Of a DNA stretch of 45,359 nucleotides, positions 1 through 7,510 are shown in pieces. The notes beneath the pieces were generated by a model. The model was not told the origin of the DNA, did not search any database, and saw only the letters and a list, made by a program, of their open reading frames with translations. The stretch spans positions 1 through 45,359 of the forward strand of contig JAWOCD010000100.1 in NCBI GenBank assembly GCA_046483985.1. The letters are read 5' to 3'. Positions within the stretch are counted from its first letter, which is position 1, and the number at the start of each line of letters is the position of its first letter. This DNA comes from Promethearchaeia archaeon (GTDB taxonomy: Archaea; Asgardarchaeota; Lokiarchaeia; Sigyniarchaeales; SOKP01). Both the position numbers and the translations under genes were made by a program.

Positions 1-294
1 AAGGCAGAAAAAATAGGTAAAAGAGTAATAAGAATTGACGAGTCTTATACCACACGGACTTGTGCAAAATGTGGAAGAAAAGCGAAACGCGATTTGTCCG
101 AGCGTGATATTAGTTGTGAATGTGGTCATAAGATGGATAGAGACTTAAATTCCGCTGTTAATATTATGGTAAAGTTTCTCACATCTGATGACCTATCGCA
201 TCAACCCTCTTTGAAGGAGGAATCCTTTCTAAAGCAATGGAACGGATTTTCTACGACACACAGCCCTAAGATATGCCCACCAGCTAACGCTTAG
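1..294 (+). CDS. tnpB: TnpB family RNA-guided endonuclease, C-terminal part (5' end outside window)
   Basis: Frame 1 is open from base 1: KAEKIGKRVIRIDESYTTRTCAKCG...CECGHKMDRDLNSAVNI. This has the YT(S/T)xxCxxCG zinc ribbon and the RuvC-III DRDxNxAxNI motif, and an IS200/IS605 right end follows. Confidence 0.93.
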   Translation, partial: KAEKIGKRVIRIDESYTTRTCAKCGRKAKRDLSERDISCECGHKMDRDLNSAVNIMVKFLTSDDLSHQPSLKEESFLKQWNGFSTTHSPKICPPANA

Positions 295-338
295 TGGACT
301 CGTAGGAATTCCCGTCCTTTAGGGCGGGGAGACTTCAA
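261..338 (+). mobile_element. IS200/IS605 right end / 3' part of TnpB omegaRNA scaffold
   Basis: GAAT (306-309), then hairpin CCCGTCC-TTTA-GGGCGGG (311-328), then terminal TCAA (335-338). An upstream stem-loop CCCAC..GTGG overlaps the tnpB stop. Confidence 0.9.
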
Positions 339-497
339 TTAGCCCTTTTTGAGAAAGAATATAGAAAAAGATGAGTCGATTGATGAGACGGTAGTATTTA
401 ATTTATTTCGAGCTAGCTCAAGAGCAGTAATCCTTTTTGCTAATTTAATAATGTGCTGCTGGATTTCTCCCAAAAATTGCTTCTCTATTCCTCTCAT
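339..497 (-). CDS. Possible small protein (52 aa, MRGIEKQFLGEIQQHIIKLAKRITALELARNKL...KKG)
   Basis: ATG at 497 and stop at 339-341, directly abutting the TCAA of the IS right end. Looks amphipathic-helical; no recognisable family. Confidence 0.25.
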   Translation of the reverse strand: MRGIEKQFLGEIQQHIIKLAKRITALELARNKLNTTVSSIDSSFSIFFLKKG

Positions 498-1945: not shown

Positions 1946-2018
1946 AAATTATATTCTTCATCCAAAAACAAAAATAACCTGAATCAACAGAATAAAGGTT
2001 CAATGAGCAGTTGATATA

Positions 2019-2237
2019 TTAAATTACCACACCCTAAAGGGCGATGGATTCGTAAATCATTGAAGATTGCTGATATACCATCAGTCTGCCATCTTCTCCA
2101 AACGCCAGCTCCGTAATCCCTACGGTTGGGGATGATCTTGGTTATGGTCCGTCAATGAAATTATAGTAGCGCTCCTTTATAAATATATGTGCGATTCATC
2201 ACCGCCCTTAAGGACGATCCTTTATCGCACTTTAGTA
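2019..2237 (-). mobile_element. Non-autonomous IS200/IS605 miniature element with omegaRNA-like scaffold (copy A, 219 bp)
   Basis: Minus strand order: TTAC target (2241-2238), 14 nt, AAAG, left hairpin ATCGTCC-TTAA-GGGCGGT, TATA-like TATATTTATAAAGG, stem CCGTAG-GGA-TTACGG, GAAT, right hairpin CCATCGCCC-TTTA-GGGTGTGG, TTAA. Homologous to 6513-6719. Confidence 0.88.
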
Positions 2238-2368
2238 GTAAATTACCAGATCTTATTCTATCCTTTACCATTATTTTAATCACTCAATAGGAAGAAAAGA
2301 TTATAGGAAATCTTTAATTTTTAATTATATTCATTGAGAAAATAATTAATTACTAAGAGCTAAAAGTA

Positions 2369-5323
2369 ATGACTTCCGAGGATTCATTAACGTCCCTAAA
2401 GAATTGTAAGAATGATAAGGAATTAAAAACGGCTTTTAAGAAAATTGCCTCAAAAGATCCCGATAAGTATTTTCCGACCGAAGAACTGAGAGAATTGGGC
2501 TATGCGAGGAAAAAATGCAAATGCGGAACTTATTTTTGGACCGTTTTGGAGGATAGAGAGTTCTGTGGAGATCCAGCTTGTTCTGGAGGTTTCGATGTTG
2601 TAGAAAATAATCCTACGCCCGTAAAGTTATCCTATGTGGGAGTATGGAAGAAGATTGTAGAAGTGTTGGAACCACGAGGTTATAAACCAATAAAGCGTTA
2701 TCCTTGCGTTGCACGTTGGAATCCGACGTCAGAATTTACTATTGCATCCATTTCGGCTTTCCAGCCTTATGTCATTACGGGTGAGGTGGATCCCCCAGCA
2801 AAAAAATTACTTATCCCTCAATTCTGCCTCCGCTTTAACGATATTGAAAATGTGGGCATTACAGGCTCTCACAATACTGGGTTCATAATGATTGGCCAAC
2901 ATACCTTTGTCTCTCCCGAAGAATGGGATCAAGGACAATTATTTATCGATATGCATGATTTCATCCACAAAGGAGTTGGTCTCGCAAAGGAAGAAATCAC
3001 CATTCATGAAGATAGTTGGGCGGGCGGTGGTTCATTTGGCTGCTCTTTAGAATTCTTCAGCAGAGGGGTGGAACTTTTCAACCAAGTATATACGATGTTC
3101 GAGCAGACTCCAGAAGGTCCCAGAGAACTCAAACTCAAAGTCCTTGATATGGGCTTGGGACAAGAGCGGGTTGCGTGGTTTTCCCAAGGAACTCCAAATA
3201 TGTATGAGGCAATTTTTCCTGAAGTATTGAAGAAGCTCCGGAAAAGAACCAAAATCGATTTAGACTTAGACCTATATAATCGTTTCTCAAAATACTCTGC
3301 TTATTTAAATATTGATGAGGTGGATGACTTATCTGAAGCGTGGAGGCGGGTGGCTGATGAACTCGATATGGAGGTAAAAAAACTGCGAGAAACCATACTT
3401 CCAATGACTGCGCTATATTCAATTGCAGAGCATGCAAGGACGCTCTTATTTGCGATTAATGATGGCAAATTACCCTCGAATGTCGGTGGAGGATATAATT
3501 TACGTGTAATATTTCGACGAGCCATTAGTTTTATTGACGAATTTGACTGGGATATAAACATTTCAGAGGTCTGCCGATGGCATGCAGAGGAACTACATGA
3601 AATGTTCCCAGAGGTCTCACAACATTTGGATGAGATTGAAGAGATCCTCGAGGTTGAGAAGGAAAAATTCTACACCACGAAACGAAAGGCAAGAAAAATC
3701 TTGAAAAAGTTGCTCAATAAAGGAGAGGAAATTACTATTAATACCTTAATTGAGTTATACGATTCCAACGGGATAAGTCCTGATATGGTAAAAAAAGCAG
3801 CACAGCGATATAATAAGGACGTAAAAATCCCCGATAATTTCTATAAGCGGGTGGTAGAAAAGCATGAACAATCTGAACAAGTATACGCAACTGAGAAGGC
3901 AACGGAATTAGATTTAGAAGGTGTTCCGGAAACCGAGTCCCTATATTATTACGATTATCGGAAAACATCCAATAAAGCAAATGTAGTAAAAATATTGGAT
4001 CATAAAGTCATCTTAGACAGATCAGTGGCTTATCCAACCTCGGGCGGACAATTACATGATATTGGGACGATAAATGGCCAAGAATTCGAAAAAGTGTTTA
4101 AACAAGGGAATCATATTATTCATATGATGAGCGAAGATCCCCAATTCCAAGAGGGGGATGAGGTAAAGGTTCAAGTGGACAGAGATTGGAGATTTCAGCT
4201 TTCTCAACATCATACAGCGACTCATATAGTGAACGCCGCAGCTCGCAAGGTTTTGGGAAGCCATATTAATCAAGCCGGTGCCAAAAAATCCTACAAAAGT
4301 TCTCATTTGGATATCACCCACTACGAACAGCTTTCTAAGGACCAACTTGATAGAATAGAAAGAGAGGCGAATGCTATTGTTAATAAGGAGATAGATATAA
4401 ATCTCGATTTTATCCCTCGATCAGAAGCCGAAAAACGGTACGGGATGAGAATATACCAAGGAGGGGCTGTACCCGGTAAGAAAATAAGGATTGTAGAAAT
4501 ACCTGGGATAGAAGTGGAAGCATGTGGGGGGACACATTTGAATAATACGGGGGAAGCAAAGGAGATCAAAATGCTGAAATCGCAGAAGATCCAAGACGGG
4601 ATTGTTCGGCTGAAGTTTGTAGCGGGTCGTGCAACGGAACGAATTGAAGAAAAGCACCAGCAGATCATCGAGGATCTTAAAGGATTACTAAACGTGGAAG
4701 AAGATAAGTTAGTCCCTCGCATAAAGGAATTATTTGAAAAATGGAAAAATGTAAATAAAGCCCTGAAATCGGGAGAAGTGAATAAAGAAGATCTTAGGTT
4801 ATCCTCTTCGGTAACTTTTGAAGGAGAAATCTTGGAAGAGATTTCCGACTTTTTAAATTTAAAGAAAGAACGTATCCCAAAAAAGGTACAAAAATTGTAT
4901 GATGAATGGACCTATGGAAAAGAGAAATTGGACAAGATGCAGAACCTTTTAAGCGAATCTCATCTAGAGCAATTAATTGAAGAAGCTTTCCCGTATAAAG
5001 ATTTTAAATTTGTATTGGAAGATTTTGAATGTCTCGATCAAGAAGATCTAAAAAATTTAAATATAAATGTTCTAGAGCAATCCGATAAATTGATTACCTT
5101 ATTACTTAACAAATTGAAGAATGGAATCATGGTAATGGGAATGGTTGCGGAAAAACCCTTGGAAAACTCTGATTTTCATATGGGCACTTTTGTTAAGGAT
5201 TTAGTGACCCGATTCGATGGAAAGGGAGGCGGCAATAAAGATTACGGGCAAGGGTTTATTAATAATCGAGATATAAAAATCAATGTTATCAAATCCTTCG
5301 TTAAAGAAAAGCTCGATTTATGA
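2369..5323 (+). CDS. alaS: Alanine--tRNA ligase (archaeal type)
   Basis: N-terminal CKCG..FWT..CGD zinc motif, QFCLRFNDIENVGITGSH, DMGLGQER, editing HHTATH and CGGTH, C-terminal DHHA1 GKGGG. Confidence 0.97.
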   Translation: MTSEDSLTSLKNCKNDKELKTAFKKIASKDPDKYFPTEELRELGYARKKCKCGTYFWTVLEDREFCGDPACSGGFDVVENNPTPVKLSYVGVWKKIVEVLEPRGYKPIKRYPCVARWNPTSEFTIASISAFQPYVITGEVDPPAKKLLIPQFCLRFNDIENVGITGSHNTGFIMIGQHTFVSPEEWDQGQLFIDMHDFIHKGVGLAKEEITIHEDSWAGGGSFGCSLEFFSRGVELFNQVYTMFEQTPEGPRELKLKVLDMGLGQERVAWFSQGTPNMYEAIFPEVLKKLRKRTKIDLDLDLYNRFSKYSAYLNIDEVDDLSEAWRRVADELDMEVKKLRETILPMTALYSIAEHARTLLFAINDGKLPSNVGGGYNLRVIFRRAISFIDEFDWDINISEVCRWHAEELHEMFPEVSQHLDEIEEILEVEKEKFYTTKRKARKILKKLLNKGEEITINTLIELYDSNGISPDMVKKAAQRYNKDVKIPDNFYKRVVEKHEQSEQVYATEKATELDLEGVPETESLYYYDYRKTSNKANVVKILDHKVILDRSVAYPTSGGQLHDIGTINGQEFEKVFKQGNHIIHMMSEDPQFQEGDEVKVQVDRDWRFQLSQHHTATHIVNAAARKVLGSHINQAGAKKSYKSSHLDITHYEQLSKDQLDRIEREANAIVNKEIDINLDFIPRSEAEKRYGMRIYQGGAVPGKKIRIVEIPGIEVEACGGTHLNNTGEAKEIKMLKSQKIQDGIVRLKFVAGRATERIEEKHQQIIEDLKGLLNVEEDKLVPRIKELFEKWKNVNKALKSGEVNKEDLRLSSSVTFEGEILEEISDFLNLKKERIPKKVQKLYDEWTYGKEKLDKMQNLLSESHLEQLIEEAFPYKDFKFVLEDFECLDQEDLKNLNINVLEQSDKLITLLLNKLKNGIMVMGMVAEKPLENSDFHMGTFVKDLVTRFDGKGGGNKDYGQGFINNRDIKINVIKSFVKEKLDL

Positions 5324-5334
5324 TTCCCAGATTT

Positions 5335-5380
5335 AACGATCTGCGAAAGAAGTCCCCATCCCTTTAGGGTGGGGATGAAA
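5335..5380 (+). mobile_element. IS200/IS605-type left end hairpin
   Basis: TGCGAAAGAAG-TCCCCATCCC-TTTA-GGGTGGGGA-TGAAA has the same layout as the left ends at 6521-6555 and 2229-2195 (TGC..AAG, hairpin, ATGA). The exact left boundary is uncertain. Confidence 0.75.
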
Positions 5381-5503
5381 GACTTAGACCTATATAATCG
5401 TTTCTCAAAATACTCTGCTTATTTAAATATTGATGAGGTAGATGACTTATCTGAAGCGTGGAGGCGGGTGGCTGATGAACTCGATATGGAGGTAAAAAAA
5501 CTG
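5380..5503 (+). repeat. Direct duplication of alaS-internal segment 3262-3385
   Basis: 124 bp ungapped with one mismatch (G3322 vs A5440), read directly from the sequence. Confidence 0.97.
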
Positions 5504-5579
5504 AGATAAAACAAAATAGCACTAAAGCAAACTAATTAATAGAAAGAAAATTATTACTATCTAATTTGTAAATGATTGA

Positions 5580-6005
5580 TTGAAAATGACTAGACCCAAA
5601 ACCCCACTTTTGACAGTGGATGCACTTATCGTATATAAATCCGCTAAACTTATTTTAATAAAACGGAAGAATCCCCCCTTTAAAGGAGAATACGCATTGC
5701 CGGGAGGCTTTGTAGATATTGGAGAAACGGTCGAAGAGGCTTGCATTCGAGAGGCTATAGAGGAAACAAATATAGATGTGAAGATCACTAAGCTGGTGGG
5801 AGTTTATTCAGATCCAAATAGAGACCCCCGAAGCCATACAGTATCAATAGCATTTCTATGTACCCCTCAAACGCATAACGAACAACCTAAAGCTCAAGAC
5901 GATGCCGCAGATCTGGATTTAATTGCCTTTAAACAAATACCGAATTTAGAATTAGCATTTGACCATATGAGAATAATTCAGGATGCTGGACTACTCCAGT
6001 CCTGA
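5580..6005 (+). CDS. NUDIX hydrolase (ADP-ribose pyrophosphatase-like)
   Basis: Nudix box ALPGGFVDIGETVEEACIREAIEETNI, plus YSDPNRDPR and LAFDH motifs. Confidence 0.93.
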   Translation: MKMTRPKTPLLTVDALIVYKSAKLILIKRKNPPFKGEYALPGGFVDIGETVEEACIREAIEETNIDVKITKLVGVYSDPNRDPRSHTVSIAFLCTPQTHNEQPKAQDDAADLDLIAFKQIPNLELAFDHMRIIQDAGLLQS

Positions 6006-6074
6006 GATATGCCCACCAGCGAACGCTAAGTGGGCTCTTAGTAATCCCCCCCCTTTAGGTAGGGGGGGCTTCAA
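5997..6074 (+). mobile_element. Orphan IS200/IS605 right end homologous to the tnpB-associated right end at 261-338
   Basis: Ungapped 78-nt alignment to 261-338, 64/78 identical by hand count. Both stem-loops and the terminal TCAA (6071-6074) are retained. Confidence 0.9.
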
Positions 6075-6370
6075 TGCAACATTTTAAGCTCAAAATAATC
6101 GATGATCTCCTTTATTTCCTTCGCAATAGAATTAAGAATGTTAAGATATTCTGTAAGAATTAATTCGCTATGAATATTTTCAATTTTTTCTAATTTTTGA
6201 GTAATCTTCATCTTTAATGATCGGATTATCTCTCTTGCAAATGGACACTCTGCTGCTTTTGAGAGCCGTCGTAAAACCTCTAACTTACTCCGCAAATACA
6301 TCTTCACGTTAAAATTATTTATTTCGAAGATCTCAACACAATTCCATAGGATATAATGATTTCGACTCAT
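6071..6370 (-). CDS. Hypothetical helical protein
   Basis: 99-aa ORF with no recognisable motif. Its TGA stop coincides with the TCA of the IS right end. The start may be the internal Met (MYLRSK). Confidence 0.55.
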   Translation of the reverse strand: MSRNHYILWNCVEIFEINNFNVKMYLRSKLEVLRRLSKAAECPFAREIIRSLKMKITQKLEKIENIHSELILTEYLNILNSIAKEIKEIIDYFELKMLH

Positions 6371-6512
6371 AATAACTGCAATTTAAATTTTCATTTTTCA
6401 AATTCTCAACTTATAAAAAAAATGTGAATATCATTATTAAAGACTTTTAGAGACCAATTTTTGACAAAAGAAGGGAGGAATGAGAAAACAAATGTTCGAA
6501 ACTTGACTTTAC

Positions 6513-6719
6513 CCATAGAGTGCAAGAAAGCACCGTCCTTTAGGGCAGTGATGATTCACACACATATATATAAAGGAGCGATGGATGATAGCCAAATTCA
6601 TCATATAACCGCAGGGACTGTGGGGCTGGCGTTTGAAGAGGATTTAAGACCGATGTTATCTATGTCGGCGATTCTGGATGAGTTCCGAATCCATCGCCCT
6701 TTAGGACGTGGTAGTTCAA
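6513..6719 (+). mobile_element. Non-autonomous IS200/IS605 miniature element with omegaRNA-like scaffold (copy B, 207 bp)
   Basis: TTAC (6509-6512), 14 nt, AAAG (6527-6530), hairpin CACCGTCC-TTTA-GGGCAGTG, TATATATAAA (6565-6574), stem CCGCAG-GGA-CTGTGG, GAAT (6687-6690), hairpin, TCAA (6716-6719). Confidence 0.9.
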
Positions 6720-6745
6720 TATCCGATACAGAGGAAAACCCCATT

Positions 6746-7510
6746 TTAGTGCTTAAAATATTTAGAAAAACATTCGCAACAGGGAATTCCGAAACCTATC
6801 TGTAACTCAGAGTTACTACTCTTTTCAGAGGAAAGTGCATTTAAGAATTGTTCCTTAATTGTCCGTATTTCGGGTTGAAGGCTAAAATAAAATCTTTTCA
6901 GATAATTTTCATGATTTTTTGCGTTGCAAATTGGACATCTGGTAAATTGGTTAAGGAAATTCTTAAGTCGCTCATCATACGTGGGGGCTACCAAAATAAA
7001 TTTCCGAATATTGGAAATTAACTCTAATCTGGCAATTAACGATTTAAAGACTTTCTCTCTCATATCTTGGGACTTGGAAACCTCAAAGAAGTCATAGATA
7101 TGAGATTTTTCCATAAAATCCTCAATTTCTTCAATTGATACTTCATAAGGAAGATCTGCTTTTGTACCCAATAGAATAAAGGGGATATTTGGATTTTCTT
7201 TCCTTATTATTTTCACCCACCAAGGAAGCTTAAGAAACGATTCTCTATCGGTAAAAGAGAAAGTAAGTATCGCGGCTGTTGCACCCCTACTATAAGTTGA
7301 ATGAAGGCTGAGATGGGGTTTAGTTGCTTTCAATTCCCATATAATAAGCTTGAAGTATTGTTTTTCATTTATCAAGCATTCTACCTTTCTTAAATTAACA
7401 CCCAAAGGACTTTTCTCTGGGTCTGGGGGTTTTCCCCCATTTAAGAAAATACTTTTACCCGAATTAGGTGCGCCGGTGAGAACTACTTTTAGAAGATATT
7501 CTTGAGAAAT
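6746..7510 (-). CDS. Degenerate Rab/Ras-like small GTPase with C-terminal Cys-rich (zinc-binding) domain; extends upstream of the ORF-track call
   Basis: The frame stays open from 7405 to 7516 and encodes ISQEYLLKVVLTGAPNSGKS (P-loop). G4 is GTKAD and the C-terminus has CPIC...CCECF. ATT at 7510 aligns with the paralogue's ATG and follows a GGTGA motif. Confidence 0.82.
   Translation of the reverse strand: MSQEYLLKVVLTGAPNSGKSIFLNGGKPPDPEKSPLGVNLRKVECLINEKQYFKLIIWELKATKPHLSLHSTYSRGATAAILTFSFTDRESFLKLPWWVKIIRKENPNIPFILLGTKADLPYEVSIEEIEDFMEKSHIYDFFEVSKSQDMREKVFKSLIARLELISNIRKFILVAPTYDERLKNFLNQFTRCPICNAKNHENYLKRFYFSLQPEIRTIKEQFLNALSSEKSSNSELQIGFGIPCCECFSKYFKH

Follow-up and report, generated by a model that had tools for sequence, protein, structure and literature searches.

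A truncated IS200/IS605 left end fused to a copied alaS fragment in an Asgard archaeal genome: most likely a one-off repair scar of insertion-sequence decay

The window, the whole stretch of 45,359 nucleotides analysed here, is contig C16 of a 4.06-Mb Promethearchaeota (Asgard) MAG that comprises 128 contigs and is 97% complete. It contains an alanyl-tRNA synthetase gene, alaS, followed on the same strand by a NUDIX hydrolase gene, the two being separated by a spacer of 262 nt that comprises (i) 8 nt directly past alaS, (ii) 48 nt from the left end (LE) of an insertion sequence (IS), (iii) a copy of an internal alaS segment, 124-134 nt long, and (iv) about 72-82 nt of unique DNA. The features of the locus, all on the forward strand, are as follows.

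1-340, + strand: an active IS copy that the contig start truncates, represented by the 3' end of tnpB and an intact right end (RE) (Pfam Cas12f1-like TNB domain; 99.7% identical to the IS reference).
2369-5323, + strand: alaS, archaeal-type alanyl-tRNA synthetase of 984 aa, intact (ORF list; Pfam tRNA-synt_2c and tRNA_SAD; PDB 3wqy, E 4e-155).
3262-3385, + strand: source segment within alaS (codons 299-339), where conservation is poor; similarity to the copy persists, more weakly, to 3395.
5332-5379, + strand: truncated LE, positions 1-48 of about 1868, of a multicopy IS200/IS605 element (98-100% identical to at least 30 LE copies that enter tnpA).
5375-5509, + strand: ORF of 44 codons; the LE supplies the ATG, 42 codons follow the AlaRS frame, and the TAA stop (5507-5509) lies in flanking DNA (translation).
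5380-5503, + strand: copy of alaS 3262-3385 with one mismatch, in place of IS positions 49-1868 (repeat search, BLAST).
5504-5585, + strand: unique sequence, presumed native alaS-NUDIX spacer (no other copy in the genome, no IS similarity).
5586-6005, + strand: NUDIX hydrolase gene, resident neighbour of alaS (Pfam NUDIX; preceded by alaS in related genera too).
5997-6075, + strand: RE', the remnant of an old and diverged right end from this IS family (82-83% identity to each active RE).

Scans of the window against Rfam at gathering thresholds and for tRNA genes returned no matches.

The alaS-NUDIX pair is a native arrangement. The closest relatives of the window NUDIX gene come from Promethearchaeota/Promethearchaeia (Asgard) MAGs, and in at least four other genera of the family, as well as in the closest named Promethearchaeota relatives, NUDIX directly follows alaS after a spacer of about 0-65 nt; the NUDIX gene is therefore resident, and the LE and the alaS copy are additions to a native spacer. 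More distant relatives display a metallophosphoesterase gene or insertions between the two genes, and none of the 40 relatives searched carries an alaS copy there. Insertions of 0.3-2.9 kb occupy the spacer in some relatives (G014, C261:2270-6046; L059, L060, L070), one of them including an RE-like segment on the minus strand (G014, C261:3068-3146), and the spacer appears, from these sequences, to be a recurrent landing site. In addition, the pair is flanked in the window by inverted copies of an element of about 220 nt, about 80% identical to each other (2016-2242, minus strand; 6508-6722, plus strand), and an RE-like hairpin lies at 6533-6558.

The hairpin downstream of alaS, which the first-pass annotation had rightly attributed to an IS, is by identity and position the left end of an IS200/IS605 element of about 1.87 kb, not a tnpB-side or guide-RNA hairpin. 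The stump begins 8 nt past the alaS stop codon with the conserved boundary motif TTTAAC (5332-5337), a motif that precedes nearly all LE copies, and is composed of TTTAACGATCTGCGAAAGAAGT, the hairpin, and ATGAA. The hairpin itself (5354-5374) is imperfect, with a stem formed by 5354-5362 and 5367-5374, one unpaired T and a DNA folding energy of -9.7 kcal/mol. The 48-nt LE occurs at least 30 times in the MAG at 96-100% identity, and the window copy is 98% identical to IS positions 1-48. The other LE copies run on as TTTCGTATATTATAC, into a TATA-like tract and a Y1 tnpA gene (PF01797, Y1_Tnp, E 5e-31), followed by tnpB (PF12323, HTH_OrfB_IS605; PF01385, OrfB_IS605; PF07282, TNB). At its other end the element closes with a related hairpin and then AGACTTCAAT; window positions 1-340 are an example of this end.

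The 1868-nt IS reference was pieced together from contig C97 and window positions 1-340, joined through a 227-nt overlap of 99.6% identity. No full-length IS was found inside a single contig, and pairing of LE and RE sequences at distances up to 3 kb gave only mini-elements and one case on contig C24; most IS copies break contigs in the MAG. Compared with this reference, the match in the alaS-NUDIX spacer ends at IS position 48 and the sequence from 5380 to 5996 shows no similarity to the IS. Both the interior and a matching right end are absent, and the window stump is thus a remnant, not an intact or mobilisable element. The same 48-nt LE is found at 94-96% identity on several contigs of G039, a genome from another family of the same order (for example C550:2581-2629), and this identity across families suggests recent horizontal spread of the IS among Asgard lineages.

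A right-end sequence of the same IS family, RE', does lie downstream, overlapping the 3' end of the NUDIX gene. Identity among the active REs is 97-99%, whereas RE' has no closer relative in the genome than its 82-83% match to all of them; against the young LE, this divergence identifies RE' as an older, separate remnant and not as the partner of the LE. The NUDIX stop codon (6003-6005) sits within RE' exactly at the place of the tnpB stop in intact right ends (CAGTCCTGA versus CAGCCCTAA), and the last NUDIX codons may be IS-derived. It could be argued that the LE (5332-5379) and RE' (5997-6075), which share the same orientation and stand in the correct order, are the two ends of a non-autonomous IS200/IS605 derivative moved by TnpA in trans, with the alaS fragment and the NUDIX gene as cargo, and an LE, host gene and RE do follow one another in this way a second time, at C24:64302-66107. 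Such a composite element is nonetheless very improbable, because the ends differ in age (98-100% identity to active copies for the LE, 82-83% for RE', the hairpin of which is altered), the NUDIX gene is the native neighbour of alaS in other genera, and the 745-nt unit from LE to RE' is single-copy.

Directly after LE position 48, the window displays 124 nt (5380-5503) copied from alaS (3262-3385), the source lying 2118 nt upstream on the same strand. The alignment confirms the single change reported earlier, a G at 3322 in alaS and an A at 5440 in the copy. Repeat search and BLAST stretch the match to 3395/5513 at 97% identity; the last 10 positions contain three mismatches (copy/alaS, 5504 A/C, 5507 T/G and 5511 A/C), similarity then stops, and the A/G difference at 5440 is the only one in the exact core. 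By tblastn, alaS is single-copy in the genome and its sole other match is 5381-5506, which translates with 100% identity to AlaRS residues 299-340; the repeat, judged on this comparison, is far beyond chance. All three codon changes listed in the first-pass annotation, GTG>GTA, CGA>AGA and GAA>TAA, occur as stated, but the last two lie beyond the exact copy and are consequently flanking sequence, not mutations of the copy, so the argument from synonymous change rests on one substitution. Judged by divergence, the copy is young, its one mismatch in 124 nt being comparable to that of the LE stump (one in 48).

The left junction shows 0 nt of microhomology: the LE reads GATGAA up to the breakpoint and TTTCG beyond it, and alaS reads CGATTT before the copied segment, which opens with AGACTT. 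At the right junction, 7 of the 10 positions after 5503 match alaS 3386-3395, a possible microhomology. The hexamer AGACTT also comes after the RE hairpin; taken as microhomology, it leaves the LE-specific ATGAA between the hairpin and AGACTT unaccounted for, and its presence in both the RE tail and the start of the copy is unexplained and may be due to chance.

The structure of these junctions bears on a technical origin of the arrangement, in which the true site would be a full IS or an empty spacer and the 124-nt piece would have been wrongly joined in by the assembly or the library. The genome is a MAG of 128 contigs in which most IS copies interrupt the assembly, and three public metagenome runs, which contain only about 2 of 34 sampled words and in which coverage of the LE continues into the normal IS interior, yielded no contig across 5380-5596 or across the junctions; one freshwater-sediment run covers 5597-5813 and 6033-6200 without differences. 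Such a chimera is nevertheless unlikely. The junctions have no shared sequence, so a de Bruijn graph would make these joins only with reads containing them; two independent chimeric joints 124 nt apart would be needed; and the copy has one base changed relative to alaS and gives way on its right flank to unique DNA that leads to NUDIX. The mismatches had earlier been taken to argue against a duplication made by the assembly, which is reasonable, although no proof.

The fusion of the LE with the copy creates the 44-codon ORF, and its translation agrees with the one first quoted, from the ATG at 5375, in the AlaRS frame, to the TAA at 5507-5509. The segment is probably transcribed, since no oligo-T terminator is found between alaS and NUDIX. 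It has therefore to be considered whether the arrangement yields a functional product, a micro-protein of 44 aa derived from AlaRS or a decoy RNA in sense orientation, transcribed together with alaS and NUDIX, that would act on AlaRS or tRNA-Ala handling; a co-transcribed peptide or RNA derived from AlaRS had been put forward on first inspection. The ORF is in frame and possesses both an ATG and a stop, the region 5324-5585 is free of T-run terminators, and a purine-rich GGGTGGGG lies directly upstream of the ATG. Set against this, every LE copy carries the ATG and the G-run, both base-paired in a GC stem of 9-10 bp that has the start codon at its foot; agreement of the frames would arise by chance in one case out of three; selection cannot be read from a single substitution; residues 299-340, the part copied, belong to the interior of a large domain and are poorly conserved; and there is no second example among the 32 truncated LE copies of the genome and nothing comparable in the 40 relatives. 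A functional by-product is thus quite unlikely, the earlier proposal of a co-transcribed peptide or RNA finds no support, and there is no evidence for gene status of the 44-codon ORF.

The genome contains 32 truncated LE copies with breakpoints between IS positions 28 and 136, many in the hairpin or just past it. The 200 nt that follow each breakpoint were run by BLAST against the whole genome, and the first 60 nt were screened for local exact matches (12 nt or longer, up to 6 kb away), with 200 random controls for comparison. By both the flank BLAST and the local-match search, copied host DNA after a truncated LE is present in the window copy only, and at none of the other 31. The search for further IS hairpins followed by copies of neighbouring-gene sequence, proposed in the first-pass annotation, therefore has the outcome that had been associated there with a one-off neutral event, as far as the genome search goes.

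Many stumps at or just past the hairpin, together with an array in which the RE hairpin and a 28-nt unit are repeated, mark the LE and RE hairpins as recurrent breakpoints. This array follows a tnpB 3' end and consists of at least three such units, head to tail, with a period of 54 nt; it lies at contig ends (C127, minus strand, last ~250 nt; C125:1-110) and closes with an LE-like GATGAA tail. Besides, gene-less mini-elements of 102-157 nt, each comprising an LE stump and an RE stump, occur at C9:8171-8277, C9:21790-21903, C107:50352-50514 and C74:25387-25425, the last with the LE 5' arm fused to the RE 3' arm inside the hairpin; in composition, these look like PATE/MITE-like IS derivatives. 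The C24 case (L055) comprises LE positions 1-300, including the start of tnpA, a single-copy gene of 411 aa with weak JAB/MPN and MIT matches, and a 40-nt RE, a second instance of IS ends around a host-like gene.

Self-comparison of the genome disclosed 13 two-copy pairs on the same contig. In two of them, C41:56450-56640 versus 56988-57178 (191 nt) and C45:4465-4547 versus 6683-6765 (83 nt), a gene-interior segment is copied into downstream intergenic DNA; these copies are 97-98% identical, hence young, have no IS end nearby, and indicate a low background rate of local copying from a template. End stumps are thus common and small local copies occur at a low rate, the combination of an LE stump with an alaS copy being a single case. 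As both processes operate independently in the genome, three unrelated events can be envisaged: an older, IS-independent alaS copy in the spacer, next the arrival of the IS, and finally a simple deletion running from IS position 49 into the copy. This succession differs from a single complex repair only in the order of events, and is improbable, being less parsimonious in that it requires three recent events within about 250 nt.

Taken together, the arrangement is probably a neutral structural scar left by the decay of one IS200/IS605 copy. The copy abuts the truncated LE and replaces the IS interior, an anatomy that fits the templated capture during repair at an IS end proposed at the outset, and, as expected of templated filler, a direct copy of nearby sequence takes the place of deleted IS DNA at the breakpoint. 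From this anatomy, we infer how the repair proceeded and in which order the events took place. A member of the active IS family (LE, tnpA, tnpB, RE) would have inserted by TTTAA(C), 8-13 nt past the alaS stop, in the short native spacer, so that the presumed precursor is a full IS at the alaS-NUDIX site. A break or stalled synthesis just beyond the LE hairpin, followed by illegitimate repair, would have retained only LE positions 1-48; about 124 nt of filler would then have been copied from alaS, 2.1 kb upstream, and the strand rejoined to the native spacer, possibly via the imperfect match GA-AAA-CA, with loss of IS positions 49-1868. The likeliest setting would be abortive gap repair or synthesis-dependent strand annealing with one template switch, and the trigger may, for example, have been excision of the transposon by TnpA with subsequent cleavage of the empty site by TnpB, a role drawn from the general biology of IS200/IS605 elements. 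The same product could have been reached by an alternative route, a tandem duplication of 2118 bp (3262-5379) followed by deletion.

Two observations weaken specific claims about the pathway: the left junction lacks the microhomology usually seen with template switching, and a search of the genome for Ku homologues found none, leaving a blunt end-joining route without an obvious enzyme. The 44-codon ORF would be a by-product of this repair, its ATG being present in every LE and its frame match a 1-in-3 accident. A more elaborate proposal sees the scar as a natural footprint of failed RNA-guided transposon homing. It combines TnpA excision, a TnpB cut at the empty site, repair synthesis on an IS-bearing chromosome copy that broke off just beyond the LE hairpin, re-priming on alaS and rejoining of the flank, with a derived ORF or RNA, co-transcribed with its neighbours alaS and NUDIX, having gained a role; in this combination it is very improbable.

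The locus is therefore most likely to hold a one-off repair scar and not a new peptide or RNA gene, an ordinary by-product of IS decay. For annotation, the hairpin is to be read as the LE stump of an active IS200/IS605 family, alaS as intact, and the 44-codon ORF is not to be called a gene. More broadly, an Asgard MAG with dozens of young IS605 copies, end stumps, LE and RE mini-elements and an RE-hairpin array provides material for the study of TnpA/TnpB element decay in archaea, and, should population data show full-IS and empty-site alleles at the locus, the scar could serve as a natural record of abortive homing repair.

Several known systems share part of this architecture. The hairpin of an IS200/IS605-family element followed by sequence that matches a host gene recalls the TnpB omega-RNA with its guide and the RNA-guided repressors of the TldR type. 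This assignment was rejected since (i) the hairpin is that of the LE, not the RE, and the sequence upstream is the alaS 3' end and the LE, with no omega-RNA scaffold or tnpB 3' end and without similarity to IS positions 1529-1868; (ii) the sole TTTAA in 3200-3450 lies at 3304, not beside 3262; and (iii) the match spans 124 nt, as against 16-20 nt for a guide. Among 51 genomic guides, none matches alaS, the best score being 12/16 to alaS 3200-3450 and 13/16 to the spacer region 5300-5600.

A diversity-generating retroelement likewise displays two near-identical direct repeats of about 125 nt, one in a gene and one non-coding downstream, here with an A downstream opposite a G. It was dismissed in view of the lack of a reverse transcriptase (PF00078 gave no matches in the 97%-complete genome, whereas control genomes matched), of mismatches that are not adenine-specific (one in the core, and a T/G mismatch beyond it), and of the position of the supposed variable repeat, which would fall in the middle of an essential synthetase. 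The rolling-circle capture attributed to HUH elements (IS91/ISCR, Helitrons) also places the end of an HUH-transposase element beside a captured fragment of a host gene; the present fragment differs in coming from 2.1 kb upstream and not from the contiguous flank, and in being a single case. To our knowledge, the TnpA of IS200/IS605 does not transpose by rolling-circle read-through.

Closer to the window are the solo-end remnants and mini-derivatives of IS200/IS605 elements, also termed palindrome-associated transposable elements, with which the stump shares the left-end sequence, boundary motif and imperfect subterminal hairpin of the active tnpA-tnpB copies. It differs from them in retaining 48 nt of the LE only, without a matching RE, and in the copied host coding sequence that comes after, of which the other 31 stumps are free. 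Filler DNA and templated insertions are known at internal-deletion junctions, from the abortive gap repair of P, Ac/Ds and Mu and from template switching by MMBIR/FoSTeS. The present case departs from these transposon fillers in its archaeal host, in the single-strand 'peel and paste' nature of the IS, in the length of the patch (124 nt), in a left junction without microhomology and in a triggering break that is presumed; by analogy, however, it would belong with them, in that the interior of the element is lost, a terminus is kept and the junction is filled by a short direct copy made in cis.
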